Shown: in pieces, positions 3,765 through 64,000 of the stretch | Numbering within the stretch: the first letter of the stretch is position 1 | Layout: each line of letters opens with the position of its first letter | Source: Yuukianura sp. NJ FZ-2021 | Taxonomy: Eukaryota | Reading direction: 5' to 3' | DNA length: 64,000 nucleotides | Assembly: GCA_046563655.1 (NCBI GenBank) | Contig: CM102283.1 | Span: forward strand, 1,054,001 to 1,118,000 | Made by a program: the position numbers and the translations under genes | Notes under the pieces: model-generated | Told to the model about the DNA's origin: nothing | Seen by the model: the letters and a program-made list of their open reading frames with translations, nothing else | Database searches by the model: none

Positions 3765-3765
3765 G

Positions 3766-3992
3766 AAAAGAAGTTATCTTTAAAATATTTACATTTAATT
3801 GTAAATTCAATTGATAATTGAAAAGAAGTGCAGACCATGCTGCTTCCCAATCAGAATTCGAAGTGAAGGTGGCAGTTCCTCTGCTCATCTTCTGCACACT
3901 CTTTACACCTTTTGGATATGCCTATATCTTAACACTTTTTACACTTTGAATTTGGCGCTTTCCACTTGAGAAGCGTCTCAAATGCCAAAACA
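3766..3992 (-). repeat. 3' LTR (outer ~50 bp deleted)
   Basis: On the minus strand begins TGTTTTGGC directly after the polypurine tract GGAGGGCGG; matches 10087-10260 and 16101-16155. Confidence 0.9.
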
Positions 3993-4488: not shown

Positions 4489-6300
4489 CTACTCTGGCTC
4501 GAGTAATTTCACAATTTTGACAATTGGACGAAGTAGCACATGATCTTTCACTTTGGATTTTCCTTTCTTGTCGATTTCAGTGGTCTTGTAGATTACTTCC
4601 ACTGATCGTACCAAATTGTCATCTCCAGGGAATGTTTTGGCGATTCTGGCTAGTTTCCACTTCAACGGTGGAGTGTCGTCGTCTTTGATGAGAACGAGAT
4701 CCCCAGTCTTCACATTTTCGGATTCGTTTCGCCATTTGTTACGCTGCTGAAGAAGGTTGAGATACTCTTTCTTCCAGCGATTCCAGAAATGTTCCGACAT
4801 CTGTTGAACTCGTTGCCATCTTGACAGTCGGTTCTCCTTGATTTCAGCCAGACTTGGTTCTGGAATGGCGAGTAACGGCTTTCCGATGAGAAAGTGGCCT
4901 GGAGTCAGCGCTTCAACGTCATCTGGGTCGCGAGATTTTGCACAGATCGGCCGAGAGTTGAGCACTGCTTCCACCATTGTCAGGAGCGTATGGAACTCTT
5001 CCAGCGTCAACGTGGTGTTTCCTACCACTCTCCTGAGGTGGTACTTCGCCGATTTTACTCCTGACTCCCATAGTCCACCCATGTGAGGAGCATCAGGAGG
5101 AATGAATTTCCACTCAATTCCTGAAATGCACAAAAAATCAACGACTTTAGTATCTTGAATAATCTTTTGCCATTCCGCAATTTCATTGGCTGCGCCCACA
5201 AAATTTTTGCCATTGTCAGAATGGATTACTGACACAAGTCCTCTCCTGGAAATAAATCTTTTTAGAGTGGCAATGAACGCTGCCGTGGTTAGGTCAGTCA
5301 CGGGTTCCAAATGGATTGCCCGTGTGGCAAAACAGACAAACACGCAGAAATACCCATCAAATTGCCTTTTGCCACGCCCATATTTTTCTTGTAGCTTAAT
5401 AGGGCCTGCGTAGTCGACTCCACAGTGAGTAAATGGAGGAGAGGGGGTTACTCTCGCCTTTGGCAAAGATCCCATCAGTTGTTCACTGGCTCTGGCTCGA
5501 AGTCTTTTACACTTTAGGCAGTCTCTGACCACCTGTCGAATTGTGACTCGTGCACGTACAATCCAGAACTTTTTGGCCAAGTTAGCCCACAACAGCTGAT
5601 AATTGGCATGTAAATAAAATTGGTGGTAGTACCTTACCATGATTTTGGTGAAATGACTATGACCTGATAGAATGATGGGGTGACATTGCTCACTAGGAAG
5701 ATCAGACTTCTGGAGTCTCCCACCAACACGCATGAGTCCCTGACTGTCCAGGAATGGATTTAGTGATTCCAGTGCACTTCCCTTGTCGACTCGATTGTTT
5801 TTCTTTAAGGCCATTATGTCGTCATTGTAGTCGTCTTCTTGCGCTACTTTGACACAAATGAGGAAGGCTCGGTCAGTTTCTTCAACTGTCAAGTCACCAG
5901 TAAGCCTCTCCCCCTGTTTCAAATTCCTGCAATTTGAAACAAATCGCAATGCGTACGCTACCGCACGGTTAAGCCTCATGTAATTTGAAAAACGATTCAT
6001 CATTTCACGATCAATTATGGCCAGATTTACCTTTACCTTTCTTAACTCAAGGAGTTCAGAGGGCTCACTTACTTTCCCTTCCGACTCAAACACTGGTAAT
6101 TCTGGATTTTTTAGCCAGTCTGGGCCACACCACCACAGTTTTGAACTTACGAGTTCATCAGCAGTTATTCCACGAGTACCAAGGTCAGCTGGATTGTCCA
6201 CTCCAGGAACAAAATTCCACGAACTGACTGGAAGAACCTCTTGGATTTCTGAAACACGATTAGCTACAAAAGTCACAAACCTACGACTTGTGTTACGTAG
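4489..6300 (-). CDS. BEL/Pao Pol C-terminal part (end of RNase H, integrase zinc-binding region and DDE core)
   Basis: TFVANRV, NPADLGTRG, LWWCGPDWL, HCGVDYAGP, SDNGKNF, GGLWE motifs; in frame with the upstream ORF across one TGA. Confidence 0.92.
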   Translation of the reverse strand, partial: LRNTSRRFVTFVANRVSEIQEVLPVSSWNFVPGVDNPADLGTRGITADELVSSKLWWCGPDWLKNPELPVFESEGKVSEPSELLELRKVKVNLAIIDREMMNRFSNYMRLNRAVAYALRFVSNCRNLKQGERLTGDLTVEETDRAFLICVKVAQEDDYNDDIMALKKNNRVDKGSALESLNPFLDSQGLMRVGGRLQKSDLPSEQCHPIILSGHSHFTKIMVRYYHQFYLHANYQLLWANLAKKFWIVRARVTIRQVVRDCLKCKRLRARASEQLMGSLPKARVTPSPPFTHCGVDYAGPIKLQEKYGRGKRQFDGYFCVFVCFATRAIHLEPVTDLTTAAFIATLKRFISRRGLVSVIHSDNGKNFVGAANEIAEWQKIIQDTKVVDFLCISGIEWKFIPPDAPHMGGLWESGVKSAKYHLRRVVGNTTLTLEEFHTLLTMVEAVLNSRPICAKSRDPDDVEALTPGHFLIGKPLLAIPEPSLAEIKENRLSRWQRVQQMSEHFWNRWKKEYLNLLQQRNKWRNESENVKTGDLVLIKDDDTPPLKWKLARIAKTFPGDDNLVRSVEVIYKTTEIDKKGKSKVKDHVLLRPIVKIVKLLEPE

Positions 6301-9300
6301 TCACTTCAGAACCGTTTCGCTGTCCGTCCATGCCATGATTGGACAATGTAACCGTGTTGCTTCCATCACTTTCGGGATTAATTTGGACAAAAGAAGAGCA
6401 CCGCAAAGCTCAAGTCTCGGAAGGCTGATTTGCTTCATGGGAGCTACCTTCGTCTTTGAAGCAACGATGTTTGTGGTGACCCGACCATTCCTCTGACTTG
6501 ACCGAACGTACACCACCGCGCAGTACGCAAGTTCAGAGGCGTCACTAAATCCATGAATTTCAATTATTCCTGGAACACCTGAGAACAAACACCTTGGAAT
6601 GGTTAGACCTTTTATGTTCTGGACACTTTGGACATAGTCATGCCATTGTCCAGCCAGATCAGGAGGAATCTCATCGTCCCATGAGAGTATTCCATTTTCC
6701 TTTCCTGAAACTGGTGACCACAGAACCTGAAAATAAACTTTGATTTTAACAGTTAGGGGGGACAAAAAACCAAGTGGGTCAAAAACCTTGGACATAGTCG
6801 ACAAGACCGTCCTCTTTGTGACCACGCCCACTGGTTTTGGAGTGTAACCTTTAAAATGAAAGTAGTCACCTCCACTGTCCCAACACACTCCTAAAACTCT
6901 GTCAAAATCAGCATCACATGTTATTACCTCATTTTTACCTCGGTTGATTTTAGGAATGGACTTCAGTACATCTTTCGAATTGGAGTCCCACTTTGTAATT
7001 TCCAGACAACCACGACGTAGAAGCCCTTCTAGCTCTGTCACGAGTTGGTTAGCCTCTTGGACACTGTTGGCTCCTCCCATCAAGTCGTCCACGTAAAAAT
7101 TTGACTTTAGTACCTCAGCAGCCATTGGAAATTTGCCTTTCTCGTCTTCTGCGAGTTGCTGGAGGCATCTGACGGCGTGAAATGGGGCGGAGCTTGTGCC
7201 GTATGTCACCGTTTGAAGTTCGTATTCACCAATTTCATCACTTGGTGTTTGTCTCCAGAGGATCCGTTGTTTTCTCTGGTCACATTTGTCCACGAGGAAT
7301 TGACGGTACATCTTTACGATGTCCGCCTTAAGTGCAATTTTATTAGTCCTGAAAAACAACAAATGAGAAAAAATATCAGGTTGTATAGTCGGACCCACTA
7401 AAAGACACTCATTCAACGACACATTATTTGACGTTTTCGCTGAACCGTCAAACACCACTCGTAATTTCGTTGTTGTGCTCGTGTCTTTCAAGACAAAATG
7501 ATGGGGCAAATAATTGGTCTCTCCAATGACCTCACCCTCCTCCGACTTGGTCACTCGACTCATGTGGCCAAGTTCTTGGTATTTTGACATAAATTGGTGG
7601 TAGTCGTCCTTGTACTGAGGGACCTTTTGCAAACGTTTTTCGATTCCCAATAATCGACTTACGGCCATGTCCCGTGACGAACCCAATTTGACACAATCAT
7701 TTTTGTATGGTAATTTGACCACGTACCGGCCACTCTCAGTCCTGGAGTGGTTTGACACAAAATGTTGTTCTGCCAGTGCCTCCTCTTTAGTGTACACCGG
7801 CCGAATTGGGACACTCTCAAGTTCCCAAAATTTTTTCACATACGACTCACACACAGAAGTAGAAAAGTTGACACTTACGTTTTTTGTAGTGCTTACCGGG
7901 CCAGATATGACCCACCCAAACTCAGTTTCCTCAGCGATGGGAAGACTAACGTCACTTTGTACCTTCTTTCCAGTCTTCAAACGGGCCACAAATTCACTGC
8001 CAAGTAGAATGTCCACATCGCTGGGCTGAAGATAGGTTGGATCTGCCAACTCCAAATTTTTCAAATGTGGCCAATCAGTGTTTTTCACAAGAAACGAGGG
8101 CAGAGTACCTGTAACTTTGTTCAAGACTAGAGCACAAACATTAATTTCAAAATTCTTAATTCTAGATTTGACACAAAAGTTCGTTTCTCCCAACGCTCTT
8201 TCGACCTGGGTTCCTGAAATGCCTGTAATGGTCACATTAGCACGATGTTTTTTCAAACCTAATTTTTTGACACACGAATTTGAAATGAAGTTGGACTCAG
8301 AACCTTGGTCCAACAAGACACGACAATTTTGGTAATCACCAAAGGAGTCCATTACACTCACCACAGCTGTAGCCAAAATAACACGAGTACTAGAACAGTA
8401 CAGTGCTGTGGTTGAAGTGGTTGGTTTCTCCTCCTTTGTATCCACGGCTGGAGGTTTCGGTTTTCTGTCATAGTGGAGCAGTGTGTTGTGCCGTTTTTGA
8501 CATTTTGCACATTTAAATTTAGACACACACTTGCTCTCACCGTGACCACCCCTAAGGCAACAGAAACACAAATTTTTAGATTTTACAAATTTCTCACGTT
8601 CGTCGACTGCCATGGCGTTGAATTGGTCACATTTGAACAACGAATGTTCACCCCCGCATTTTGGACATGGGACCTTGGAGGACGATTGGTGAGACTTTTT
8701 CTCAGTGGGTTTCTCAGCAGTCTTTTTCTCACTGTGACCCGATTTTTCTGAGCCAACATTTAACCCACGAAGGTGATCTTCCAGAAAGTCCTTGACCTCG
8801 CTAAATTTTGGCATCTGCGTACCTTTGAAATGGCGGGTCCACTCACGTTTTGTTTCAACCGAAACTTTTTCTAAAATCAAAAAAATCAGAAAAGAGTCCC
8901 ACTTGTCCACAGGCTCCTTCAACACCTGAAGTGACCTGATGGACTGATTAAAAACATCAAGCAACTTCCGTAGTGCTTGTGCGGACTCATTAGCAATTGG
9001 TTTGAAATTCACAATATTTTTCAAAAATGAAAATATGATTTGGCGCGGGTTTTCATACCGCTCTTTGAGGCTGTCCCATGCCTCTTCAAAAGTCCCATTG
9101 CTCAAATCGAAGTACTTGAGCGCTTCTTCAGCCTCACCCTTCAGCGTAGGCTGGAGATATCCCAGCTTCTGGCTTCCAGTCAAGTCAGGATTATTGACAA
9201 TGTAAGTCAAAATTAAATCCTTGTAGGACAGCCAGTCTTCGTATTTGCCGCTGAACGTGGGTAGTTCCAACTTCGGCATATTTACTTTCATTTTTCCAGA

Positions 9301-9756
9301 TGCTGAGCCTCCACTGACCTGGGACTCAAAAGAAATCAATTTCAGATTAATTGCATCTAAAAACTTATCACACACATTTAATTCCGCAGCCTGCGCGCGT
9401 ATTTGCGTTTCGTCGTCGCAGTTCATGTACACATCGCTGCGCAATTCACTTAGCCTTGTTTCGAAACCCTCAAGTTTCTTCCGTTCCATCGCCATCCTGG
9501 GCTTGGACACAAGGGTGGGATTTGTGCTGTACTCCTCCACTTTTTGCTGAAAATACTGGAGGTCAAAGTTGAAACCTCTTATGGCTTTTACCATTCTCTG
9601 CATGTTTTCAGACTCCACACTTGGTAGTGACACGCTCAGCATTGATTTCGAGCCAGTCGGCTTGACCTGACCTTGACCTTTTGCTGCAGCCACCTTACTC
9701 TCTTGTTCTTGGTCAGACATGGCCAAAGACGATTCTTTGGCTTTCTTCATGGTCAA
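6301..9756 (-). CDS. BEL/Pao Gag-Pol N-terminal part (Gag with three Cys/His knuckles, aspartic protease, RT, RNase H)
   Basis: LPTFSGKYEDW; CPKCGGEHSLFKC/CFCCLRGGH/CAKCQKRHNTLLH; LLDQGSE; KLRVVFDGS; YVDD; FSDAS; LPRLELCGA; ends in a premature TGA. Confidence 0.93.
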   Translation of the reverse strand: MTMKKAKESSLAMSDQEQESKVAAAKGQGQVKPTGSKSMLSVSLPSVESENMQRMVKAIRGFNFDLQYFQQKVEEYSTNPTLVSKPRMAMERKKLEGFETRLSELRSDVYMNCDDETQIRAQAAELNVCDKFLDAINLKLISFESQVSGGSASGKMKVNMPKLELPTFSGKYEDWLSYKDLILTYIVNNPDLTGSQKLGYLQPTLKGEAEEALKYFDLSNGTFEEAWDSLKERYENPRQIIFSFLKNIVNFKPIANESAQALRKLLDVFNQSIRSLQVLKEPVDKWDSFLIFLILEKVSVETKREWTRHFKGTQMPKFSEVKDFLEDHLRGLNVGSEKSGHSEKKTAEKPTEKKSHQSSSKVPCPKCGGEHSLFKCDQFNAMAVDEREKFVKSKNLCFCCLRGGHGESKCVSKFKCAKCQKRHNTLLHYDRKPKPPAVDTKEEKPTTSTTALYCSSTRVILATAVVSVMDSFGDYQNCRVLLDQGSESNFISNSCVKKLGLKKHRANVTITGISGTQVERALGETNFCVKSRIKNFEINVCALVLNKVTGTLPSFLVKNTDWPHLKNLELADPTYLQPSDVDILLGSEFVARLKTGKKVQSDVSLPIAEETEFGWVISGPVSTTKNVSVNFSTSVCESYVKKFWELESVPIRPVYTKEEALAEQHFVSNHSRTESGRYVVKLPYKNDCVKLGSSRDMAVSRLLGIEKRLQKVPQYKDDYHQFMSKYQELGHMSRVTKSEEGEVIGETNYLPHHFVLKDTSTTTKLRVVFDGSAKTSNNVSLNECLLVGPTIQPDIFSHLLFFRTNKIALKADIVKMYRQFLVDKCDQRKQRILWRQTPSDEIGEYELQTVTYGTSSAPFHAVRCLQQLAEDEKGKFPMAAEVLKSNFYVDDLMGGANSVQEANQLVTELEGLLRRGCLEITKWDSNSKDVLKSIPKINRGKNEVITCDADFDRVLGVCWDSGGDYFHFKGYTPKPVGVVTKRTVLSTMSKVFDPLGFLSPLTVKIKVYFQVLWSPVSGKENGILSWDDEIPPDLAGQWHDYVQSVQNIKGLTIPRCLFSGVPGIIEIHGFSDASELAYCAVVYVRSSQRNGRVTTNIVASKTKVAPMKQISLPRLELCGALLLSKLIPKVMEATRLHCPIMAWTDSETVLK

Positions 9757-10018
9757 CAGTTTGTCAACTTTGATTAATTTTACTCAAAAAGAGCCACACA
9801 CGATAAGTTAGACAATTACTGTTGCCACACACACATATGTCATGACCGAAGACTCAAGATTACACAAATACACACTGACACAATGATTAATTCATTAACA
9901 CATTTGTTCAATTGACACCTTTGAACTCACCTAAGTTAACTGTTACGTTAGTTAACGATTACCAAAATACCGCATGCTTCATCCTTTGTTGATTGGTGGT
10001 TCGTTGTCTTGTCGACGC

Positions 10019-10036
10019 AACCGTCTTTCGGCACCA
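10019..10036 (-). promoter_or_regulatory. Primer-binding site TGGTGCCGAAAGACGGTT (variant tRNA-Phe)
   Basis: Abuts the CA end of the 5' LTR; complementary to the last 15 nt of the tRNA at 59908-59980 plus CCA. Confidence 0.93.
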
Positions 10037-10260
10037 TGAAGTGAATTTGGATGGTAGAGCGGATGTTGGTTTTTGTGTTTTATTATAAAAGAAGTTATCT
10101 TTAAAATATTTACATTTAATTGTAAATTCAATTGATAATTGAAAAGAAGTGCAGACCATGCTGCTTCCCAATCAGAATTCGAAGTGAAGGTGGCAGTTCC
10201 TCTGCTCATCTTCTGCACACTCTTTACACCTTTTGGATATGCCTATATCTTAACACTTTT
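10037..10260 (-). repeat. 5' LTR, inner portion (continues at 16101-16155; full LTR ~277 bp, TG...CA)
   Basis: Matches the 3' LTR over 10087-10260; the remaining LTR sequence ACACTTTGAATTTGGCG...CCAAAACA reappears at 16104-16155. Confidence 0.92.
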
Positions 10261-39297: not shown

Positions 39298-39516
39298 TAC
39301 AACTACAACTACAAATTCAAAAACGATAAATGGTTTTATACGAGGAGGCTTCACTACTATTAGAGTTAGATTTGCGATTAAAAATAAGATCTCACCACAA
39401 TTTTTCTAAAAATAAAATTTTTATGATTACAGTTTGATTACTTTGATTTGATTGAGGCAATCCAATTTTTGAAAAGAATTTTCTCAATGCCGTACGGCCT
39501 AACCACCTTCATTGTA

Positions 39517-41449: not shown

Positions 41450-41995
41450 GCATTTGCTGTTACGCAAAACATAAGCCACCCAGTCGTAAAGTGGGTATTG
41501 GGTACACTATCAGGTTACAATGATGGTCGGGAGAAATAACGCCAACCGAGAATTTACATAAAGTTAGAATTTTAAAAGTAAAATTTGCGCCAACTTTTTT
41601 CTCAATCAGTCACATGCGTATCAATAATAAAAACATAACAAAAACAAACATAAACACAAGGTTAAATTGGTTAACGGAGGGGTTAAAAAGTATTCCCTCT
41701 CATTTAGAATTGAATTAGTTAATTATTAATCGTATTAGTCGACTTGCTTTGACGCTTGTGGACCATCACTTTGAAGTTCTCACCAACAACAGTTAAGGGT
41801 CCAAGAAACGCAGAACAGACATTTTGACAGCAGGTAACAATTTAGGTAGTACAAGTCACATGAATCAGCTGAGCGATGAATCATCATCTATTTGATAAAA
41901 ACGAAAAGTATTCTGATAATCTGGTGTATAACCTAATATTCTATTTACCTTGGTGTAAACTAAATTTTAGTTTGTAATTCCACAGTTTCCAGAAC

Positions 41996-49400: not shown

Positions 49401-52400
49401 ACTCTTCGGCCAAAATGGAAGGCAGCTCCTCCTACAGAGATCAGTTTCAACAGAAAGAACTTGAAGAACAAAAGCGGTATAAAAAATTCAAAATTTCGAA
49501 AAATTTCCAAAAATGGACAGACCTTGAAAAGTGACCAAACTTGAATTGGTCTCGAAGTGGCCAAATTTGGTCCCATTTCGGTTATGTATGAATTTTTGAC
49601 ACCTGATGAACTGACAGATTTGACAATTCGAAGGCCTAAATTTTCAGGAATACTTTATTTTTTTGAAAAAAGGCCAAAAGTGGTGGTGAAATTTTGATGA
49701 GAGAGAAGTGGTTGGGCACACTTAATAGACATAGTTTTCCAAATTCTAGAACTTTTTTCTACTTTTTACAAAAGTTTGTATGCAAGTTTCGATTTTTTTC
49801 TAGGTTCAAGCTGGAAGACTATGCCGAAAAGGCGGGAATTTTCGGAGACATGGATACCGTTGAAACACGAATCGTTACTGAAGTGACGTCTTCAGTACCC
49901 GGAGATTTTGAAAAGTTAGGAGCGAGAAATTTTGAAAAAGACGACTTAGTTGCAAGGAGCATTTTGCTCCAAGATACTTCAGATGGAACTACGACGAAGT
50001 TCCAGTCTTCATCTACTCAAGAATCCAGTTCCATGGCAACATCGTCTTACCAAAAAAGTTCATCATCATCCAGTCACGTCCAGAAGAGTTCCAGTGGATA
50101 TCAAATGACCTCCGAAATTGAAGGAATCGATTCGATTACTGGGCTGAAAATCGATTCCAAGGATTTCATAAACCAAGGAATCGATTCCGGTGATGCGATT
50201 ACTGACCGAAGACTGGATTCCAAAGATTTGATTACCAGACAAGAAGTTGATTCCACTTCCACGCAACTAATCGCTCCGATTGAATCGATTACTACGCATG
50301 GAATCGATTCGATTACTAGGCAAGGAATCGATTCCAACCAATCAACTACTATTAAATACTCGAGTCAAGTCCACGGTGGGACTTATACTAGAAAACAGCT
50401 TCGTGGCGGGAAGCTTGTTGACGTGCCTTGGTCAGGACCAGTTCCATCCTCTTCCGATTCTGCACAAACTCAGTCCATTCAGAAAATCTTTTCTTCTGAA
50501 CAAGATTCCGATGTCAACCGACAGTCCACGAGCGTCTTCGAATCAACTGCGCATGACTCCAAGCAAGAATCATCGAAACTTGTGTCCAGCAGCTACATGC
50601 TATCTGATACGCTTGACCACGTCGCTGACATAATTGATGGACACTCCACAGGAACCGTTGTGAAAAAAAGTGGCGTCACCTTTACTCCAATTCCTCCGAA
50701 GGACGCAAGACATGGGCAGACGACGCTTGACATTTCTCATGACACTTCGTTACTTGATGTTTCACGTGACGCAACAAATTTTGAAGTAACTTCTTCTACC
50801 ACGACAGTTGACATGTCTCAGTCGTCGCAAAAGTCTTCCAGAACAGGTTCCAAGGTCGTCGATGGTCGTACGGTAGAAGATTATGCAGAATCAAGCGAAT
50901 CCAGCCAGAAAAGAGTCAGAGGAGGTCCGCAAGGTCCTGTATCAACTTCAACCCACGTAACTTCTCGTACTGAACACAGTACTGGAGTGGGAGGAGACAC
51001 GAAAGTGGGGGGAGGTGGTGGGCCTAAGGGGGAAAAAGCTCCTCGTGGTCCTAGGAAAATACTGCGCGGTGGTCAGCTGATTACGCTTCCAGCTGACCCG
51101 GGATACTACGATCAGCCGGACCAAAGCGGCACTTCCAGGGCTACCACGCAACTCCTTCCAGTAAAACCATCTCGGGCGGGAACTTCAGGAACATTTAAAT
51201 CTTCAATTGATCACTCCGGTTACCAAAACATTCAACAGAGTGAAGAAATTATTCAAGAGTCGGTCAGTTCCCTCAAAGGCTTAGGCGACGAGCTAACTCA
51301 GCGTCATACGACATTCAAAATTGTTCCTGGAACGACTACATACACATCCCGAGGCGACACAACGAGCGACATGAGCACCCATGGAAGAACTTTTGTGTCA
51401 TCAATTGACGTCCAAACGACCGAAACTACTTCTAAAGAAGAGCATGTCAGCCAATCAGCAGAGATGTCGCAAAAGTCGTATGAAATGTCGCAGATGACTT
51501 CTGGAGCTACGTCGTCGCAAAAGCAAGTCAAGAAATCCACGGATAAGTCGGATCTGTCAAAAGACCTCAGTTCCACTACCGATCACATTACAAGGTCAAC
51601 GACCTCTGGCCAAGATGATTCTACAACGGATAGGTCAAAGGTCATTTCCACTGACAACGATACAGTCACGAGATCATTTCACGATACAACGACTTCAACC
51701 GAAGAAAGCAACACAGCACTGGAACGGATCAACCGCGTGTCCTCGGCGACATACGTTGATCATATTACTGATGTCACCCACTTGCGACACGTTTCAAAAC
51801 CGAAGAAAACCGTTTTGCAAAGTTCCGAAATGGAAACCATGTCGAGCGGTACGGTACACGACCTGGGTGATATCCAAGGTCTGACGGTCGTCTCACAATC
51901 AAGAAGCTCCGTCGGACAAACTGTGGATCAGCGACAGGCGCAGACAGATCTTGAAAATTTGACTCAGACGAGACGTGTCTACGGAGTAGACATTGAGACG
52001 AGTCTGTCCAAAGTCAATGTCCAAGCGATCCACGAAGAAGAAATTTCTTCCGGAACTGTCCGAATCGGTGACTCTGGAATCGAAACGACCGAGAATGTGG
52101 TCAAATCTGTAACTGAAATTAAACGAGCCAAAGTTCCTGGAGGAGATCGTCCTGGAAAACTTGTTGAAATTGACGAACGCGTTTCCACTTCGACGACGTC
52201 AACTGACCAACAAACTTTCAAGTTTCACGAGATTAGTTCCAGTGAAGCTGAGAGAACGCTGCGTGAAACACGCCGGCGCAATGACATTTTCAAATCCGAC
52301 ACTGCAATTGAGTCGGGAGTCACAAGCAAAACTTCAGATGTCAAAGATGACACGACCGAGAAACTCAAAGTTGGTCAAGTACTGGTCGAGGAAGTTTTTG

Positions 52401-55400
52401 ATACAAACACGTCTTTTGAAAGTCGAGATCGGAATCACGTTAAGACGAGAGCCATGGAAGACGAACATCTTCAGACCACCACGGTCCTGGAGAAGACTGA
52501 AGACGTTTTCAAACCGGTAGACCGACCGAGTCCGATTCGGCAAAAAGATAATTTGAAACCGGAAGGAGAGTTTTACCGAAAACCGAAAGATGATGCTCCG
52601 CTACGCGGCGATCGAGCGCCAATCAAAAAACCAACGGACAACTTGACTACAGAAGGTAAAAATATTTATTTATTTTGTCATTTTGTAATTGCAAAAAAAA
52701 AAAACCCTGCGCATGAGCAGTTTTTTTTGTTAAATTATTTGTTCAGGGTTATTGCGATTTCTTTCATACTTTGCCACTCGGTTTCCGTAAAAGTTGAACT
52801 TTGAACTACGTGAGGAATTCCCGCAAAAATTCGTTTTTCATCCACCTCTGCTAAATCTTGATCCAGAACTTTTTCGACCATGTTAAATTCCGTTTTCCTC
52901 GTCCACATTTCCGTTCCTTTCAAAAGCATCAAAGGCCATGCGTCTAGAATTCCGGGTTTTAGAAATTGACGAACCCAGTCAATAGATGAGCGAAACGAAT
53001 CGACGGTTTGTAGTGGCAAACCATAAATTAGCGATACTTCGAAAGGAATTTTCAAATTCCTTAGTTTTTCTGCAGCACTCACAACAGCCTTTAAATTGTT
53101 TTTGCGTCTGATCACTTTTGACTCGGACGGAATAATCGTTTGAATGCCAAACTCCAGCTCCACTTGGACTCCTTGAGCTTGAAGCCGACAGAGGGCGTTG
53201 AGAAACTCATCTCGAACCATTTCAAACCGGCATTGGAGGGAGAGGCGACCACTGTAGCCACTTTTTTCAAACTCTTCTAGAATGTTCATGTAGTTTGAGC
53301 CGGAGTTGAAGATGGGGTCAACGATCGAAAGGTCATTGACCCCTTGCTGTACAATGAACGCAATTTCATTTTGAATTCTGTTGAGGTCACATGCCAGTCG
53401 CTTCTCATAACTGTCTTTGTGTTGGCTGAAAAAAGAGGTTGCAGTAAGGACAAACTGAATTCAATGTAACCACAAAGTGTAACTACTGCCGCCATTTCTA
53501 ACTTAGTCAGAAATAGTACTACGGCTAAGGTAAACCGAAATTGACGTCATAAAATGAAGCACTAACGATACGGCATACCCATCCACTATTTTGTAATGAC
53601 GCTTTGGTTGCACTGTGCCTTCAAAATCAAATGATCACAAAAATTTAACATTTAATTTTTAAAAAACTCAAAAATTTAAAAATTTGGAACGAAGCCTAAA
53701 CTCATCATAATATTATTGTACCCACGCACTGCACGAATTAAGTGTTGCAGTATAGTTTCCGTTACTACACGGGTGGTTACACCGAATGTAACTCCGGTTT
53801 ACTCTAATACAATATCTCGATTCCAATAGCTTTATGTCGTTCCTTAAAGGAATTTCAGAAGAATATTTTAGCAGAGTTATTTATGTGAGACAAAGTGGTA
53901 CGGTTAGCATTTGTGGTTACAATAGTTGCAGTTTGTTCTTAAGCCAACCAAAAGGAACAAGTGAAAGGACATCCCCTTTTCGTTTCCAGGCGAAGATACT
54001 GCTTGTGCTTGACAATTCCGGGACTCAAGAGTGGGGACGGCAAGGCGCTGAGGTCATACACCGATTTCACGCCAAGGTCACTGTGACCTTTGTAATGTAC
54101 TCCATCAATTTGCATTTGACCTTTTGACCTGAGATTCTTCAAAAGAGTTGTAAGACTTTGCTCTGCATAGCCTCTGATGAAAATGTCTCCATATGGGTAG
54201 TTGACCTCGAGTGACCCCGCTGGGTTGTACGTCACCTGTGGTCCACCAAGGACAGTGACCACATAGGGGCTCTCGGCCTTGAGTTCGTTTAGGCTTGGGC
54301 TGATGTAAGACTCATTCCAGACATAAACTCCAGTTGCGACGAAATCGGGACGAAGTTGACGCGTGTCGGTTAGAAAGTCGTTGCAAATTGTTTGCAAATT
54401 TCCTCTGTTGACGTTGTACTGTCGGTGAACGATGTCGTACCCCGCAGTGACCTCCGGGTCTCTTTTGAGTTGTGCTAAAATTGAAGATGCTGCGAGAGAA
54501 ACGTTGGGATCTTTTTTCCTCAACCAATCAAAAGACGCCAGAAAAAGTCGCTTCATTTTTCAAAAATGTTTGAAAAGATTTTCCAAAATCTTGACCAATT
54601 GCACTCTGTGGTCGTTCCAGTATGACTAACTCATGACTTCAGATCTTTGCAAATCTCGGCCTTGTTTTTGCAAAATGACTCACTCCGTTCCAGTTTTTTC
54701 TTATCTATTAAACTTGCAGTTATTTGCTTCTGACGCAAAATGTAAGTTGAGGCTGCGACGTTTTGTTTTGGAACTGAATAGCATTTTTATCTCTCGTTGT
54801 TTAACCATTAGTATGCTCGTAAGTTGGACGTGACGAAGGACGACTGACCTTTTCCTGACCTTTAAATGGTATAATTAGCAAAAGTAGTTCGCTCTTTACA
54901 TTTTTCTCCTACTCTGTCTGTCTGTCCGTCTGTCCGCAGGACACTATAACTCTGGCTCCTGGAACCACTTGACCGATTTCGAATCTTTCTTCCTCTTTAC
55001 AAATGAACTTCATATGGTCTGGTTGTTATTAATCTGTTTTCGGTTTTACCGGAAGTAAACAACTTCGGGGTTGTGAACTTCATTTTTATTTCGCTACTTC
55101 TATATGTCGTTTACGACGGTTTATTAAACCCGATCCAGTTTAGGTTGATTGATTAAGTAGATTGATATTTACCAAAAGCCACTTAAATTGTTTTGAACTT
55201 GAACCGATTGACACTTTTTTTGAAAATCATTTGATTTGAAAACCTTTAGAATCGATACGGCTTTCAAAAGTAGTCAACCCTATTACAGATAACCAAAAAA
55301 AGTACTATGGCTTATTTATCCAGTGGCACAAACGAAAACGAAATTTTAAAAGAAGTCGTGCTAAAAGAAAGTGTGTCATTGGAAGATTGAAGTGTGTTTG

Positions 55401-58400
55401 GTTAAGGGAGAAAAACACATAGTGCAAAAGAGTTAATCAATTCCATTGATTGTTAATTAATCGAATTTTTAATTCGTTTTCTCTTTTCTTTTTCGTAGGA
55501 GAGTTCTACAAAAGGCCAAAGGACGATGCTCCGTTGAAAGGTGACCGTGCTCCCATTAGGCGTCCACAGGACTCGTTAAAACCAGAAGGCGAATTCTACA
55601 AGAAGCCAAAGGAAGACGTTCCAGCAGGAGAGAAGCGACAGCCAATAAGACATCCAGACACACTTTTCCTGGAAGGTATGGATATTTTTTAAAAAGACAA
55701 AAAATTATTTCAGAATTCTGAAATTGTAACCAAAAATTCTGAAACAGGCGAGGTTTACCAGCGACCAAAACCGGAAGGCCCTATGAAGGGAGACAGAGCT
55801 CCTACGAAACGACCAGAAGACAATCTTCGAACTTCAGACGAACCATTTTACAAGAAACCGACTCCAGAATTTCCAAAAGGAGAAAAACGAAGTCCGGTAA
55901 GACACGGCGACAATTTGTTTCTCGAGGGACAATTTTACCAAAAACCGAAAGAACCGATTCCGGTAGGAGAGCGCGCTCCGGTCAAAAAACCGGTAGATAA
56001 TTTGAAACCTTCTGAGGAACAATTCTACACGAAACCGGTTCAGTCCGTACCGACCGGAGAAAAACGAAGTCCGATCCGGCATGGAGATAATCTTTTCCCC
56101 GAGGGAGAATTTTATAAAAGACCAAAGGAACCGGTACCGGTAGGAGAGCGTGCTCCGGTCAAAAAACCGGAAGATAATTTGAAACCATCTGAAGGCGAGT
56201 TCTACACGAGACCGGTTGAAAGTCTTCCTGCTCCGGAGAAACGAACTCCAATCAGACACGGGGATAACTTATTCCCCGAGGGCGAATTTTACCGGAGACC
56301 GAAAGAGGGCGTTCCGATAGGCGAAAGAGCTCCAACAAAAATTCCGCAAGACAATTTGAAACCGTCGGAAGAAGAATTTAGTCAGAGACCGACACAAATT
56401 GTTCCGACTGGAGAAAAGAGGACACCAATCCGACACGGTGATAATCTGTTCCCTGAGGGTGAGTTTTACAAACGACCAGTGGAACCGGTTCCGACAGGAG
56501 AGCGCGCTCCGGTAAAGAAACCACAGGACAATCTGAAACCTTCCGAGGAAGAATTCAGCCAAAGACCAACTCAAGCTTTTCCAACCATTGAAAAACGAAC
56601 TCCCATCAAGCAAGGTGACAATCTCTTCCCCGAGGGAGAATTTTACAAGCGACCGATTGAACCTATACCGAAAGGAGAACGAGCACCGGTCAAAAAACCG
56701 GAAGACAATTTGACGACATCCGACGCAGCATTTTACCAAAGACCGAAAGAAACTGCTCCGAAAGGAGAGCGAGCGCCAACAAAAATTCCACAAGACAATT
56801 TAAAACCGTCCGAAGAAGAATTTTACCAACGTCCAACCCAAATTCTTCCGACACCCGAAAAACGAACTCCAATCAAACACGGAGACAATCTTTTTCCGGA
56901 GGGCGAATTTTATAAGCGACCAGTTGAACCGACTCCAAAAGGAGAGCGTGCTCCAACTAAAATTCCACAAGACAATCTCAAACCTTCAGAAGAAGAATTC
57001 AGCCAGCGACCGACCGAGAGATTTCCAACTGGAGAGAAGCGTTCACCAATCAGACACGGAGATAACTTGTTCCCGGAAGGTGAATTTTACAAACGGCCAA
57101 TCGAACCGATTCCAAAAGGAGAGAGGGCTCCAACTAAAATTCCACAAGACAATTTGAAACCTTCAGAAGAGGAGTTTAGTCAGCGACCAACCGAATTGAT
57201 TCCGACCGGAGAAAAACGGACACCAATCAGACACGGGGATAATTTGTTCCCCGAGGGAGAATTCTACAAACGCCCAGTTGAACCAACTCCAAAAGGCGAA
57301 CGTGCTCCGGTCAAAAAACCTTTAGACAATTTGAAAACATCCGAGGAGGAATTCAGCCAAAGAGTGACAGAAACTTTCACAATTGGAGAAAAACGAAGCC
57401 CAATCAGACATGGAGACAATCTTTTCCCGGAAGGCGAATTTTACAAACGGCCAGTAGAACCCACGCCAAAAGGAGAAAGAGCTCCAACTAAAATTCCAAA
57501 AGACAATTTAAAACCGTCCGAGGAAGAATTCTACCAGCGTCCGACCGAATCTTTTCCAACAGGAGAAAGGCGTAGTCCAATCAAACACGGTGACAACCTC
57601 TATCCAGAAGGAGAATTTTATAAAAAACCGGTCGAACCGATACCGAAAGGCGAACGGGCTCCGGTTAAAAAACCGGTGGACAATTTGACAACGTCTGAAG
57701 AAGAATTCAGCCAAAGAGTGACCGAAACGTTTACAATCGGAGAGAAACGAACACCAATCCGACATGGCGACAACTTATTCCCGGAAGGTGAATTTTACAA
57801 ACGGCCAGTTGAGCCTATTCCGGTCGGAGAAAGAGCTCCGGTAAAAAAACCGCAAGACAATCTGAAACCTTCCGAAGAAGAATTTAGCCAAAGACCAACC
57901 GAAACTTTTCCTACCGGAGAAAAACGAACACCAATCAAGCATGGCGACAACTTGTTCCCCGAAGGTGAATTTTACAAACGGCCAGTTGAAAAAACACCAA
58001 AAGGAGAACGAGCTCCTACAAAAATTCCAAAAGACAATTTAAAACCGTCCGACGAAGAATTTTACCAGCGCCCGACCGAATCTTTTCCAACTGGAGAAAA
58101 ACGAACTCCAATCAAACACGGAGACAATCTTTTTCCGGAGGGTGAATTTTATAAACGCCCAGTTGAACCGATTCCAAAAGGAGAACGAGCTGTAGTGAAA
58201 AGACCAGAAGACAATTTGACCACCTCCGATGCTGATTTTTACCAAAAGCCAAAAGAGGGCGCACCAAAAGGCGAACGAGCGCCTACCAAAATTCCAAAAG
58301 ACAATTTGCGTCCTTCTGAAGATGATTTTTACCAGAGACCGGTTGAGCAAGTTCCAATTGGAGAACGACGACAGCCAGTAAGACACGGCGACAACCTGTT

Positions 58401-59913
58401 TCCAGAAGGTGATTTTTACCAACGTCCAGTGGAACCAGTACCACGAGGGGAGCGGGCTAATGTGAAGAAACCAGAAGACAATCTCTACCCGGAAGGAGAT
58501 TTTTACCAGAGACCAGTAGAGACAGTGCCAAAAGGCGAGCGAGCGCCTACCAAAATTCCGCAAGACAATTTGAAACCATCCGAAGACGAATTTTATCAAC
58601 GACCAATCGAAAGCCTCCCTTCGCCAGAAAAGAGAACGCCAATCAAACACGGAGATAACTTGTTTCCAGAGGGAGAGTTTTATCGAAAACCGATCGAAAC
58701 TGTTCCGGCTGGAGAAAAACGAACGCCAATCAAACACGGCGATAACTTATTTCCGGAGGGAGATTTTTATCAGCGGCCAGTCGAAAAAGTACCGAAACCG
58801 GAACGTGTTTCGCCTAAAAAACCGACGGATAATTTGAAACCGTCCGAGGAGGAATTTACTCAACGGCCTGTACAGGAGTTTCCCAAAATTGACAAACGGA
58901 CGCCAATCAAGCAAAAGGATTCGCTTCGCCCTGAAGGTTAGTATGTTACGTTTTTTTCTTAGAACGAGAATGCTTCGTTGTCGTATTGGGGCTTCGCCGC
59001 TGACTCAATCACAAAATTAATAGTTTAGCAATATTTTAATCAAAAATTATTTTTCAAAGCAATTTTTGCTGAATTAGCAAGTCACGTTGCCTTAAATGCT
59101 AATGGTTACACACAAACAGGGCCTTAAGAAGAAACAGCCCTAACTTTTTAGTATTGTAATTGATAGTGAATACTTTTTTCGGATTGGCAATTCTTTGCAT
59201 TGTAAGAATTTTGGTAAAATTTTACTATCATGTGAACTAATCCTGTTTACTATCCCTACTTCTGATTTTTATGAAACTGTTTCTGAGAAACTAACCGCTT
59301 GAGAAACCGATGATCACAGAATGCGAAAAAAAATTGTGTTGCGACTGCGAGACGAACGATGTTTGTTTTCATTTTCACCTTAACCTAACCTTAACGCTTT
59401 CGCAAAGTAGTTTTTGCTTAGAAAATTCTTTGATTCTTTTTCTATTTCGTTAAATTCACTTTTGAAATTGTTAAACAGCGTTTTTATAACGTTTATGTTA
59501 GTTTTGATGAGGTTTCGCAAAATGGATTTTATTTATAAACAAAAAAAAAAGAATAGTAAACTGTGTCCTTTTATGGTGAACTTCACATTTTCAAAATTTT
59601 GATAAAACAAAAACACTTCGAGTAACAACCCCATTTTTTTTATTTTTGCGATCAGTGGCGCTTTTAGATATTCTCGGAAAATTTTTCATCAAATATGAAA
59701 GCTCACGATAAAAACATTCTTGCTTCACTTGTTTCAAACTGTGAATTTATACAGTTTTGAGTACCTATAAGAGAAATTTTTTGCGCGTACTTTTTTTTTG
59801 AATTGCATTTTTTTTTGTAAGTGACGAAGATGTTTCTAACTTTATGTTCTAGAGAACAAGTTCTACTTTGTACTTGAGGTGCAACTTACGGACTGTTCTC
59901 CAACGGTGCCGAA

Positions 59914-59953
<40 letters not shown>

Positions 59954-62900
59954 CCGGCGGGTCGAAACCGTCTTTCGGCACATTATTTTTTTTTTCTATT
60001 TTTTAAAAGAATTTAGTTGAAAGCGCTTCATCATACCTTGACAGCTTTAATTATTTTGAAAAACCCGCTTTATTTTTTTTTTGTAGAACCGTAAGTTTTG
60101 AAAATTATTGTGAATTTTTTCTACCGTATTGACTGAGTATACGAATCAGTATTTAGTGGAATGTGAGGCTAGTAGTTAACTTTTGACTTTTGCAGTTAAT
60201 CTTATCTTGGTTGATGACTGCTCTATGGACTTTAGTTTTGAAACAGGAACAAACATTATTTCCAATAACTTGTTCCTGTCTAGAATTCAGAATTGTGACA
60301 CTTTGACCTTTGATTTATTTTGAAAGTCAGTTTTTTTAGCATTTTGAAATTGGAAATTTCTATTGACAGGTGAATTCTATCAACGTCCAGAGGAAACTCA
60401 AATTTTCGTGGGCGAACGCGCGGAGAAAGTTCTTCACGAAGACAATCTACTTCTGGAAGGACAATTCAGTGAAGTTACTACTTCGAGAATGGACTTTAGA
60501 GATGTCAGAGGAGAAAGAGTCCAGGTCAAGAAGCAAGTGGACAATCTCTACATGGAAGGTCAGTAACATTTTTAATTGTCTTTACCAAAAAGCCTAAAAT
60601 TTTGAAATATTTTAAGTGTTTTATATTTCCGATTTTGTTTTTAGGTGAGTTTTATAAAAGACCAGAAGAGAAAGCACCTCTGAAGGGTGATCGTGCTGAA
60701 AAAGTGATTCCAAAAGACAATTTGAAGCCTTCTGAAGACGAATTTTACAAGCGACCGGTCCAGCCTATTCCTAAAGGTGAACGAGCAGCGGTCAAAAAAC
60801 CGGAAGATAATTTGAAACCTTCCGAAGAGGAATTCAGCCAGCGACCAACCGAAAAATTTCCAACTGGTGAAAAACGAACACCAATCAAACACGGAGACAA
60901 TCTTTTTCCGGAAGGAGAATTTTACAAGCGCCCTGTCGAACCAATTCCAAAAGGTGAGAGAGCTCCTACAAAAATTCCAAAAGACAATTTGAAACCATCA
61001 GAGGAAGAATTCTATCAGCGCCCGACCGAAACTGTTCCAACCGGAGAAAAGCGTACTCCAATCAAACACGGCGACAATCTCTTCCCCGAGGGAGAATTCT
61101 ATAAACGTCCAGTTGAGCCAACTCCAAAAGGAGAACGAGCTCCTGTTAAAAAACCGCAAGACAATCTGAAACCATCCGAAGAAGAATTTAGCCAGCGACC
61201 AGCCGAAACATTTCCGACTGGAGAAAAGCGCAGTCCAATAAAACAAAGTGACAACTTGTACCCCGAGGGTGAATTTTACCAACGTCCAGTTGAATTGGCT
61301 CCCAAAGGAGAGCGGGCTACCGGTAAAAAACCGGAAGACAATTTGACGACTTCTGATGCCGCTTTTTACCAACGACCGAAGGAACCAGTTCCAGTTGGAG
61401 AAAGAGCTCCGGTCAAAAAGCCCGTGGACAATTTGAAAACATCCGAGGAGGAATTCAGCCAAAGAGTGACAGAAACTGTTACAACTGGAGAAAAACGAAC
61501 CCCAATCAGACATGGAGACAATCTTTTCCCGGAAGGAGAATTTTACAAGCGGCCAGTTGAACAAACACCGAAAGGCGAACGAGCTCCAACTAAAATTCCA
61601 CAAGACAATTTAAAACCTTCAGAGGAAGAATTCTATCAGCGTCCGGCGGAAACTTTTCCAACAGGAGAAAGGCGTAGTCCAATCAAACATGGTGACAACC
61701 TTTATCCAGAAGGAGAGTTTTATAAAAAACCGGTCGAACCGATTCCAAAGGGCGAACGAGCTCCGGTTAAAAAACCGGTTGACAATTTGACAACGTCTGA
61801 AGAAGAATTCAGCCAAAGAGTGACAGAAACGTTTACAACCGGAGAGAAACGAACACCAATCAGACACGGAGATAACTTGTTCCCGGAAGGTGAATTTTAC
61901 AAACGGCCAGTCGAACCGGTTCCAGTAGGAGAGAGAGCTCCGGTCAAAAAACCGCAAGACAATTTGAAACCGTCAGAAGAGGAGTTTAGCCAGCGACCAA
62001 CCGAATTGTTTCCGACTGGAGAAAAACGGACACCAATCAGACACGGGGATAATTTGTTCCCCGAAGGAGAATTCTACAAACGCCCAGTTGAACCGACTCC
62101 AAAAGGCGAACGAGCTCCGGTCAAAAAACCTTTAGACAATTTGAAAACATCCGAGGAGGAATTCAGCCAAAGAGTGACAGAAACTTTTACAATTGGAGAA
62201 AAACGAAGCCCAATCCGACATGGAGACAATCTCTTCCCGGAAGGTGAATTCTACAAACGACCAGTCGAACCCATTCCAAAAGGAGAAAGAGCTCCAGTAA
62301 AGAAACCGGAAGACAATTTGAAGCCATCCGAAGAGGAATTTGAAACTAGGCCAGTCAGCAGTGTTCCAATTGGTGAGCGACGAAGCCCAATCAAACACGG
62401 AGACAATCTTTTCCCGGAGGGTGAATTTTACAAACGTCCAACTGAACAAGCTCCCAAAGGCGAACGAGCACCGACCAAAATTCCAAAAGACAATTTGAAA
62501 ACATCCAAGGAGGAATTCAGCCAAAGAGTGACAGAAACTTTTACAATTGGAGAAAAACGAAGCCCAATCAGACATGGAGACAATTTGTTTCCGGAGGGAG
62601 AATTCTATAAGCGTCCTGTCGAATCAGCTCCGAAAGGCGAAAGAGCTCCAGTCAAAAAACCCGAAGACAATTTGAAACCTTCTGAAGAAGAATTTGAAAC
62701 GAGGCCAGTCAACAGAGTTCCGGTTGGTGAAAAACGAAGTCCAATTCGGCATCCCGACAACTTAAAACCCGAACAAGGGGAGTTTACGCAGAGGCCGGTC
62801 AGCGATACTCCAAAAGCAGAACGTCGGACGCCCGTAAAACAGAAAGATTCTCTGTATCCTGAAGGTAAAATATTCCTTTTTTCAAAAATTCAATTGTACG

Positions 62901-64000
62901 TTTTCGAAATTTTGATTTTCTAAATGTATGAATTTTCATTTCCAGGAGAATTCTACAAACGACCGCCAGAAAACGTTGGGCCTGGTGAGCGACGGTCTCC
63001 GATCAAACAACCCGACAATTTGTACCAATCAGGTCCGTTCTACGCCAAACCAAAAGATGTCGCTCCGCTGAAAGGTGACCGCGCAGACGTTCTTCGGCCA
63101 ATTGACAACCTGCGACCGTCCGGAGACGTCGACTATGGACACAAACCGACTGCAGTTCCAAAGGGAGATCGCTATGATGCAAAAAAACCAAAAGACAACT
63201 TGTCTCCCGAAGGAGAATTCTACAAGCGACCGAAAGAACAATTTCCAACAGGCGAGAGAAGAACGCCAAAGAAACCGCAGGATAATTTGCATCTTCCAGA
63301 TGGATTGTTTACGCAGAAGCCAATGAAGGAAGGACCCCTTAAGGCAGAGCGAGCAGAAATTAAAATTCCGTCGGACAATTTGAAACCTGGCGGGAAATTT
63401 TATGAGAAACCAAAAGACGACGTCCCGGTTGGAGAACGACGACGTCCAATTCGTCATGAAGATACACTCAAAACTGAAGGTAAATTTTTCTTCTGACGCT
63501 AAAAAAAACAATGGTGCATCGTAGTTAAAAAATTTTAAAAAAAAAACCTCCTTATTGCTTTTTCTTCAACTGCTCTTTTAGCTCTTGAATAAAACTTCAT
63601 CACTTTTTGTCTCTTGCCATCGTATTTATGTGGTTGTGGGCTTACTTTATTAAATTGCATATTAAAATTTCAAATTCCAAAAACTAACAAATTCTTCAGC
63701 TTCTTTACTCATAATTTCACCTGTCGCGTCCATTTTGTTGAAACATTGCTCATTTTTAGGTCAATTTTACAAGAAACCGGTTGAAGCCGTACCGGTTGGT
63801 GAGAAACGATCTCCGGTAAAACATCCCGATAACTTGTTTCCTGAGGGAGACTTTTACAAGCGACCGGTTGAGGAAGTTGGTAAAGGAGAGCGGCAGAAAC
63901 CGTACAAATACAAGGACAATTTGTTCCCGGAAGGCGAATTTGCAAAAAGAGATGCCCAAAAAGTTCCTGTTGGGGAACGAGCCGAAACGAAACGCCCGGT
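46404..64000 (+). CDS. Giant SAXO/FAM154-like (possibly chascon-like) repeat protein, runs off the window; exons 46404-46504, 49141-49273, 49355-49476, 49804-52655, 55499-55675, 55748-58936, 60370-60558, 60645-62864, 62946-63479, 63760->64000
   Basis: Spliced N-terminus CVCELCTCGGHRCPH resembles the SAXO Cys-rich motif; MEGSSSYRDQF and FSEVTTSRMDF are Mn-like; Ser/Thr-rich region, then dozens of DNLxPEGEF repeats; all junctions are GT-AG and in frame. Confidence 0.8.
52735..54556 (-). CDS. B12-binding-domain radical SAM protein, 432 aa; exons 54556-53949 and 53425-52735
   Basis: GVYVWN and VLGGPQVT (B12-binding fold); RGYAE; LPSP; ETKRGCPFTCSF|C (CxxxCxxC completed by splicing); DPIFN; EFGIQT; LIYGLP.QT; PLMLLKGT. 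Confidence 0.9.
54914..54945 (+). repeat. GTCT/GTCC microsatellite, probable HINE/DINE-1-like remnant
   Basis: CTGTCTGTCTGTCCGTCTGTCCG resembles 10317-10335; termini not recognisable. Confidence 0.35.
59908..59980 (+). tRNA. tRNA-Phe(GAA) variant with a non-canonical T-arm
   Basis: Cloverleaf: GCCGAAA/TTTCGGC, GCTC/GAGC, TCAGA-CTGAAGA-TCTGA, GGCGG-GTCGAAA-CCGTC, discriminator A; oligo-T terminator ~6 nt downstream. Confidence 0.92.

Follow-up and report, generated by a model that had tools for sequence, protein, structure and literature searches.

A nuclear tRNA-Phe gene with G54 and an atypical T-arm, and a BEL/Pao primer-binding site complementary to its 3' end, in Yuukianura sp.

The tRNA-Phe gene and the intron that holds it

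The window analyzed here is a stretch of 64,000 nucleotides (nt) from Yuukianura sp. NJ FZ-2021 (contig CM102283.1, positions 1,054,001 to 1,118,000 of the forward strand). It contains a tRNA-Phe(GAA) gene whose T-arm departs from that of animal tRNA-Phe and carries a G at position 54 and, on the opposite strand, a BEL/Pao retrotransposon whose primer-binding site is complementary to the 3' end of this tRNA. The features of both are collected in Table 1. Most likely, this is a genuine nuclear gene for tRNA-Phe(GAA), intact in its structure and of a type specific to its lineage.

Table 1. Features of the tRNA-Phe gene, its surroundings and the BEL/Pao element (positions are those of the window).
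Feature	Position	Strand	Basis or remark
tRNA-Phe(GAA) gene, 73 nt, ending in discriminator A73	59908..59980	+	ARAGORN, Rfam RF00005, own Phe covariance model, minimum free energy fold
T-arm GGCGG / GTCGAAA / CCGTC	59956..59972	+	Sequence and cmscan alignment; one occurrence in the window
T-arm landmarks: G54; A59 and A60; G50-U64 wobble	59961; 59966-59967; 59957/59971	+	Sequence
A box (tRNA positions 8-18), TAGCTCAGTTG	59915..59925	+	Fits TRGYnnAnnnG (PMC4333407)
B box (tRNA positions 53-61), GGTCGAAAC	59960..59968	+	Fits GWTCRAnnC save at W54, which is G here
T10 run, terminator-like for RNA polymerase III, 6 nt past the gene	59986..59995	+	Read from sequence
Inferred phase 1 intron (GT...AG) in the repeat-rich host gene	58937..60644	+	Two open frames of the same repeat
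Primer-binding site, complementary without mismatch to tRNA positions 59-73 and CCA	10019..10036	-	Exact match
5' long terminal repeat (LTR), repeated part	10087..10260	-	174/174 identical to 3766-3939
3' LTR copy, without the last 50 nt or so	3766..3939	-	Identity to the 5' LTR
gag-pol, a single frame divided by one in-frame stop into the open frames 9783-6301 and 6300-4489	4489..9783	-	Pfam

The only tRNA called by ARAGORN in the window is this tRNA-Phe(gaa), at 59908-59981. The gene scores 66.3 bits on the Rfam model RF00005, which has a gathering score of 29, and canonical tRNA-Phe genes from public metagenome contigs reach 68.9-71.2 bits. The cmscan alignment gives an acceptor stem GCCGAAA/TTTCGGC, a D-arm GCTC-AGTTGGGA-GAGC with the D-stem GCTC/GAGC, an anticodon arm TCAGA-CTGAAGA-TCTGA and a variable loop AGGCC. 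Stems of 7, 4, 5 and 5 pairs are present together with a 7-nt anticodon loop and a 7-nt T-loop; all 21 cloverleaf pairs are formed, with G50-U64 as the single wobble, and the minimum free energy fold is the cloverleaf itself (-25.9 kcal/mol). The original prediction had described a T-arm with G54, stems that pair throughout and an anticodon stem TCAGA/TCTGA, and this description is correct. Phenylalanyl-tRNA synthetase (PheRS) recognizes its substrate by G20, A73 and G34-A35-A36, and all of these bases are present in the gene. The window holds no second copy of the gene or of its T-arm.

The internal promoter can be compared with the consensus sequences TRGYnnAnnnG for the A box and GWTCRAnnC for the B box (PMC4333407). 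The B box agrees with its consensus at eight of nine positions, the mismatch being G for W at 54, and the B-box string proposed earlier, GGGTCGAAACC, is indeed found in the sequence. tRNA genes with A at this place of the B box are transcribed. RNA polymerase III (Pol III) terminates at T runs, and such a run follows the gene closely. CCA is not encoded 3' of the gene in the genome, where CATTAT stands instead.

The inferred intron is 1708 nt long, and the tRNA gene inside it shares the strand of the host gene. The plus-strand open frames at its two sides (55693-58941 and 60500-62923) both encode the same proline- and glutamate-rich repeat; the first ends at the GT at 58937, and the second is entered past a pyrimidine tract and the AG at 60643-60644. 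Joining the two frames keeps the repeat unit in phase. The intronic location claimed by the original prediction agrees with these features of the predicted splice. Apart from the tRNA gene, the inferred intron has no Rfam match and no notable repeats.

The host gene (49667-62923, +) has long exons made of a repeat of about 56 residues (…GDNLFPEGEFYKRPVEP…) in which P, E, K and R abound, with a Ser/Thr-rich exon (49667-52804) upstream of the repeat exons. It had been called a giant gene; it is indeed large and repeat-rich, but the name is a term of the original prediction to which no family can be attached from Pfam. The sole Pfam match, RPN7_PSMD6_C, was rejected as a real family membership, since no stretch of the protein passes the E-value limit by itself.

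A T-arm of the purine-54/purine-60 kind

The gene was compared with the tRNAs on 115 public metagenome contigs (at least 115 exist in the collection) that carry an animal-type tRNA-Phe pattern, with N allowed at position 54. ARAGORN finds 440 tRNAs on these eukaryote-like contigs, and the Phe pattern itself occurs in 125 copies of 22 distinct sequences, every one with T54. Position 54 is T in 391 of the 440 tRNAs and A in 49, with neither G nor C. The carriers of A54 are 32 of the 36 tRNA-Ala, 14 of the 20 tRNA-Met, which are the initiators, and single Asp-, Lys- and Trp-labelled genes. The general statement that elongator tRNAs have T54 is therefore wrong as a rule, as shown by the tRNA-Ala and by a class known from the literature (PMC7566577, PMC9023262): Westhof et al. 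(2020) describe an A54/A58 class of eukaryotic tRNA-Ala(AGC) (PMC7566577), and the survey text of Westhof et al. (2022; PMC9023262) names as exceptions to U54-A58 in mammals and insects the A54 initiator, the A54 tRNA-Ala class and a C54 tRNA-Ile(GAU) of primates. The whole T-loop GTCGAAA of the present gene is found in none of the 440 tRNAs. ATCGAAA is the loop of the 14 initiators and of one odd Lys-CTT gene, and TTCGAAA that of three Val-AAC genes. The Lys(ctt)-labelled gene with the initiator-type loop (metagenome contig L086, 1049-1123, -), a further gene labelled as an elongator that has a purine at 54, neighbors a C28-G42 tRNA-Phe and a pair of initiator genes.

With blastn, matches of the 115 contigs to the window are limited to the tRNA and its T run. 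Neither an animal-type tRNA-Phe with a base other than T at 54 nor the exact 3' half of the tRNA occurs in the genome-contig and viral-contig collections, which contain almost no animal DNA, so that these zeros mean little.

Outside positions 47-65, the gene is an ordinary animal tRNA-Phe. It does not differ from the commonest metagenome form at positions 1-27, 29-41, 43-46 and 66-73, and the two share GAA, G20, A73, the D-arm, G18, G19, T55, C56 and A58. The usual animal anticodon stem is TTAGA/TCTAA, as had been stated, and this agrees with the comparison set; the C28-G42 pair of the present gene is a natural variant of it, found in 6 of the 125 Phe copies and 5 of the 22 distinct sequences. 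The differences from canonical tRNA-Phe are T47C, T54G, T59A and C60A, together with a T-stem that has G-C at 49-65, G-U at 50-64 and C-G at 51-63. All 17 distinct Phe sequences that were aligned have T47, T54 and C60, none of which was forced by the search pattern, and the consensus T-stem of mammals and insects in the survey text is CCYGG (PMC9023262).

The distribution of these changes is strongly uneven. Relative to the L040-type Phe gene, the nearest common form and one that has C28-G42, the gene differs at positions 47, 49, 50, 51, 54, 57, 59, 60, 64 and 65; relative to the L034-type Phe it has eight differences. The ten L040 differences all fall within 47-65, and the remaining 54 positions are free of them (P = 1.5e-7 under even placement). 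When ten random changes were placed inside positions 47-65 in 200,000 simulated trials, the five T-stem pairs all stayed intact in 1.2% of them, and the five pairs together with C48, G53, T55, C56, A58 and C61 in 0.0085%. In support of the proposal that the structure has been kept by selection, this confinement of the changes, the pairing of every stem and the small fraction of simulated survivors are not what random decay would produce.

The loop changes also follow a known pattern. A purine at position 60 is present in 48 of the 49 A54 tRNAs and in 3 of the 391 T54 tRNAs of the comparison set, where the copies are not independent, so that the very small Fisher P overstates the association; the co-occurrence of purine 54 and purine 60 is likewise described by Westhof et al. 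(PMC7566577). The tRNA-Phe gene, with G54, A58 and A60, conforms to this pattern, and it lacks the R15/A48 combination of the tRNA-Ala branch, having G15 and C48. Because the pairs are kept and T54G and C60A obey the purine-54/purine-60 rule, the T-arm as read from its sequence is coherent and not a decayed arm. The molecule would thus combine a pan-animal tRNA-Phe body (1-46 and 66-73) with a T-arm remade as the purine-54/purine-60 kind, in which G takes the place of A.

The resemblance of this T-arm to that of the initiator had led to the suggestion of an initiator-like tRNA, possibly one for non-AUG initiation, and a pseudogene or the head of a short interspersed nuclear element (SINE) had been named as an alternative; we consider both very improbable. 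Two covariance models were built, one for Phe on 17 distinct metagenome genes and one for the initiator on 5 distinct genes. On the Phe model the gene scores 91.9 bits, with canonical Phe genes at 99.5-106.5 and the best non-Phe tRNA at 70.7. On the initiator model it scores 53.2 bits, compared with 101-103 for three true initiators, 46.2-49.9 for canonical Phe and 53.0 for an unrelated tRNA. The isotype is thus Phe, and an initiator identity does not hold. The initiator T-loop/D-loop substructure combines A20, A54 and A60 with a missing N17 (PMC10275265), and A60 alone is present here, the gene having G20, G54 and T17. The further initiator marks, CAU, A1-U72 and three G-C pairs at 29-31/39-41, are also absent: in their place stand GAA, G1-C72 and a TCAGA/TCTGA stem with a single G-C pair at these positions. 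The lack of these marks rules out initiator function or a role in non-AUG initiation, and the likeness to the initiator is reduced to A60 and a purine at 54. The signs of a pseudogene or of a SINE head would be disabling changes scattered over the gene, or many copies with a downstream body unrelated to tRNA, and none of them is seen for this gene in the window; the T10 run comes directly after it, no body is attached, the copy is single and there is no random decay.

What remains of the initiator likeness concerns the arm itself. The nearest T-arm in the comparison set is the initiator arm GATGG-ATCGAAA-CCATC, with 4 mismatches in 17 positions, but the likeness, though real, is weak and limited to the T-loop. 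This arm had been quoted as that of the eukaryotic initiator, and it occurs as such in 2 of the 14 initiator copies, whose loop is ATCGAAA in all 14. Arms of Asn, Val, Lys and another initiator follow at 5/17 mismatches, and canonical Phe arms differ at 6 or more of the 17 positions. The greater closeness to an initiator arm than to any Phe arm, the restriction of the differences to the single module 47-65 and a B box that leaves the consensus at 54 would all be expected of a silent chimeric or gene-converted locus, in which a Phe body has received a foreign T-arm and the tRNA that primes the retrotransposon comes from other genes. However, none of the 440 comparison tRNAs offers a donor arm with fewer than 4 mismatches, and neither the A box nor the terminator is damaged. 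Together with the evidence of the primer-binding site given below, this makes a silent chimera unlikely.

A BEL/Pao element whose primer-binding site matches the tRNA

As a test of the idea that the tRNA acts in priming, the window was searched for the complement of its 3' end with CCA added. A 16-nt exact match was obtained at 10021-10036 (-), which extends to 18 nt when the sequence is read. There are no mismatches between this site and the tRNA with CCA over the 18 positions, nor over the 15 of them that are encoded by the gene, and an exact 18-mer is expected by chance in the window 2e-6 times. The match covers positions 59, 60, 64 and 65, at all four of which every canonical tRNA-Phe differs. 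Among the 439 other tRNAs that could be scored, the best have 3 mismatches to the site (7 genes), and 116 tRNAs, including canonical Phe, have 4.

The site lies where a primer-binding site is expected. In the orientation of the element it follows directly after the sequence '...CACTTCA', between the LTR and gag and about 235 nt upstream of the gag-pol frame, and it is about 50 kb away from the tRNA gene. The gag-pol frame has Pfam matches to DUF1759, Peptidase_A17 (Pao), RVT_1, rve, Integrase_H2C2 and DUF5641. The 5' LTR probably extends to 10037, ending in CA. This end is putative, since nothing in the 3' LTR copy corresponds to the 50 nt between the repeated part of the LTR and the primer-binding site. 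The identity of the LTR parts suggests a recent insertion, and hence a young element. The element as a whole spans 3766-10260 (-), and its shortened 3' LTR is adjoined by a tandem array with a period of 193 nt (2504-3767), in which a 300-nt reference is found in 6 overlapping copies of 72-99% identity.

A site of 18 nt complementary to the 3' terminus of a tRNA is the standard arrangement of retroelements, as stated in PMC1797187. The primer tRNAs of retroviruses and LTR elements likewise pair with an 18-nt complement, CCA included, that lies upstream of gag and beside the 5' LTR; here the primer is an atypical tRNA-Phe. Other LTR elements use the initiator tRNA as primer. The complementarity ends just before A58. 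In retroviruses, methylated A58 stops reverse transcription, and the end of the match at this point may, by analogy, reflect a methylated A58 in the present tRNA. A literature search on the tRNAs that prime BEL/Pao elements gave nothing usable, and the 18-mer does not occur in the viral-contig collection, where almost no animal DNA is held and a zero means little.

Because the genome has no CCA after the gene, the site is a record, though an indirect one, of a tRNA that was processed and CCA-tailed. It is therefore probable that a mature tRNA with such a 3' half is present and primes reverse transcription, and the exact match suggests that the cell does produce the odd tRNA. The site also bears on the chimeric locus considered above: the Phe acceptor strand and the odd T-stem strand on the 3' side match the site jointly, so that their junction probably exists in a mature tRNA. 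The priming role put forward by the original prediction thus gains an 18/18 match within the same window, but ordinary host tRNAs serve as primers too, and a specialization of this tRNA for priming is unproven.

The remaining observations concern other parts of the window. An open frame at 33269-34123 (+) has a weak match to OAS1_C, the C-terminal domain of 2'-5'-oligoadenylate synthetase (E = 1.1e-5, 25.6 bits). A gene for an FHA-domain, SNIP1-like protein is found at 38317-39405 (-) by Pfam and by a protein homology search; the top-scoring protein is labelled 'UNVERIFIED_CONTAM' and comes from a sturgeon assembly, and the best named relatives are from springtails (Orchesella, 65% identity), followed by other arthropods, which points to a probable arthropod source that has no close relative in the protein collection searched. 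The region 40614-41539 (+) consists of simple repeats that are open in three frames (with …PTADSRQ… and …FQNFKKISK… units); they probably represent a satellite or microsatellite and not a coding region. Between 16001 and 32000 the GC skew is negative throughout, at -0.10 to -0.14 over 16 kb.

Position 54, elongation and the place of this tRNA

The reading that we favor, with somewhat better than even confidence, is that the organism makes a tRNA-Phe with the rebuilt T-arm, from this gene among others, which serves as a Phe elongator with G54-A58, and that the retrotransposon merely uses it. Pol III would transcribe the gene through the internal A and B boxes and stop at the T10 run; the transcript would be processed at its ends and receive CCA. 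PheRS would then charge the tRNA, in keeping with GAA, G20 and A73, and the charged tRNA would decode UUY as an elongator, with factor binding perhaps weakened by G50-U64 and C51-G63. By its sequence, a CCA-tailed tRNA with exactly this 3' half (59-76) is the cognate primer of the BEL/Pao element.

Several observations weigh against this reading, and they concern the binding of the elongation factor on the one hand and position 54 on the other. The T-stem was scored with the additive free-energy terms for bacterial EF-Tu, relative to yeast tRNA-Phe, of Schrader and Uhlenbeck (Table 2 of PMC3239215). The terms for the gene are -0.4 for G-C at 49-65, +1.4 for G-U at 50-64, the worst entry for that position, and +0.5 for C-G at 51-63, with a sum of +1.5 kcal/mol. 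The highest value among the 407 of the 440 comparison tRNAs that can be scored (33 have a pair outside the table) is +1.4 kcal/mol, so that the T-stem of the gene is predicted to be weaker than all of them on a table that is bacterial. If the prediction transfers to eEF1A, elongation could be impaired.

However, the EF-Tu table is a poor guide to eEF1A, because it is bacterial and because true initiators are not outliers on it: the 14 initiators score 0.6-1.0 and overlap with the 124 scored Phe genes (0.3-1.1, mean 0.77). G50-U64 is present in 10 of the 440 tRNAs, which equals the copy number (10) of the A54-type Ala-AGC arm CGGGG-ATCGATA-CCCTG. Since this arm belongs to ordinary elongators, an arm with a purine at 54 and G50-U64 is compatible with elongation. 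The proposal that the tRNA is poor in elongation therefore finds a predicted T-stem weakness in its favor, and is countered by the origin of the table and by the Ala-AGC elongators that share G50-U64; poor elongation is possible.

The same evidence bears on a stronger version of this proposal, according to which the gene encodes a specialized isodecoder whose initiator-style, eEF1A-weak T-arm (G54, GAAA at 57-60 and G50-U64) keeps the charged tRNA largely off eEF1A. Such a tRNA would act in part outside translation, in priming or as a source of regulatory fragments, and the BEL/Pao site would be tuned to it. The weakest T-stem of the scored set, owed to G50-U64, is in line with this, as is a primer-binding site that fits this variant and not canonical Phe. 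Drabkin et al. (1998) reportedly established which T-stem pairs of the initiator block eEF1A. The sequence of the vertebrate initiator is stated to block elongation-factor binding (PMC11301382, citing Drabkin 1998), and the initiator, whose GAAA at 57-60 is shared by the gene, is described as bound by nuclear PUS10 in mammals (PMC7749629). Against such a specialization stand the bacterial nature of the table and the overlap of initiators and Phe genes on it, the A54-type tRNA-Ala that elongate normally with G50-U64, and the usual priming of retroelements by ordinary host tRNAs. An isodecoder set apart from elongation in this way is distinctly improbable, and the idea that the BEL/Pao site is tuned to it shares that low standing.

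Position 54 itself speaks against our preferred reading in other respects. G54 is found in none of the 440 comparison tRNAs and in none of the 125 tRNA-Phe copies, and no animal-type tRNA-Phe with any base other than T at 54 occurs in the whole metagenome-contig collection. G54 is not mentioned in the survey text of PMC9023262, and the supplementary alignments of that paper and of PMC7566577 might list rare cases. The G lies off the B-box consensus and may bear on transcription, and the folding energy of the cloverleaf is not unusual relative to shuffled sequences (z = -1.23). The primer-binding site ends at position 59 and is silent on G54. In a literature search for 'G54' with tRNA and T-loop, the titles and abstract beginnings returned only mitochondrial, riboswitch or unrelated uses.

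These points leave room for a G54 that is private to this copy, the usual tRNA-Phe of the lineage having the same arm (A59, A60, U64 and C65) with A or T at 54, and the copy being slightly damaged or neutral. The record in the primer-binding site covers only 59-76 and would be identical in that case; the absence of G54 from the comparison tRNAs would follow, T54 is compatible with A60 in the three Val-AAC genes, and a single A-to-G transition would suffice to produce the loop from the initiator-type ATCGAAA. However, the gene shows no other damage: it has 0/15 differences from the record in the primer-binding site and none from the animal body outside 47-65. A single change at exactly this position is, moreover, a priori improbable, at roughly 1 in 73 per change. 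A private G54 is therefore rather unlikely.

If the preferred reading is correct, the tRNA can be placed among the known departures from U54-A58. Its loop is identical at six of seven positions to ATCGAAA of the initiator tRNA-Met, sharing GAAA at 57-60 with A60 and a purine at 54, and differs in having G for A54; the standard G15-C48 pair is found in both. The A54/A58 tRNA-Ala(AGC) likewise combine a purine-purine 54-58 pair with purine 60, and some members have G50-U64, but as described in PMC7566577 they always have R15/A48, whereas the present gene has the standard G-C at 15-48, the purine G and the isotype Phe. The C54-A58 tRNA-Ile(GAU) of primates is a comparably rare, lineage-restricted exception in an elongator; it has a pyrimidine at 54, and the survey text reports no rebuilt T-stem for it (PMC9023262). 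New in the present case are the Phe isotype, which is not known with a purine at 54, and a G where all described purine-54 tRNAs have A.

The importance of the gene depends on its standing in the genome, since as one copy among many normal tRNA-Phe genes it would be a minor curiosity. Few features of tRNA are as conserved as the U54-A58 pair. A working G54 tRNA-Phe, if confirmed, would be a fourth exception to it and a natural test of the rule that purine 54 needs purine 60, and it could show how weak a T-stem may become for the binding of the elongation factor. If the tRNA were instead a primer poor in translation, it would provide the first natural case of a G54-A58 T-loop put to a defined use other than decoding. 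Independently of this, the primer-binding site of a retrotransposon provides a record in the genome sequence that an odd tRNA is matured, one that can be used without RNA data.

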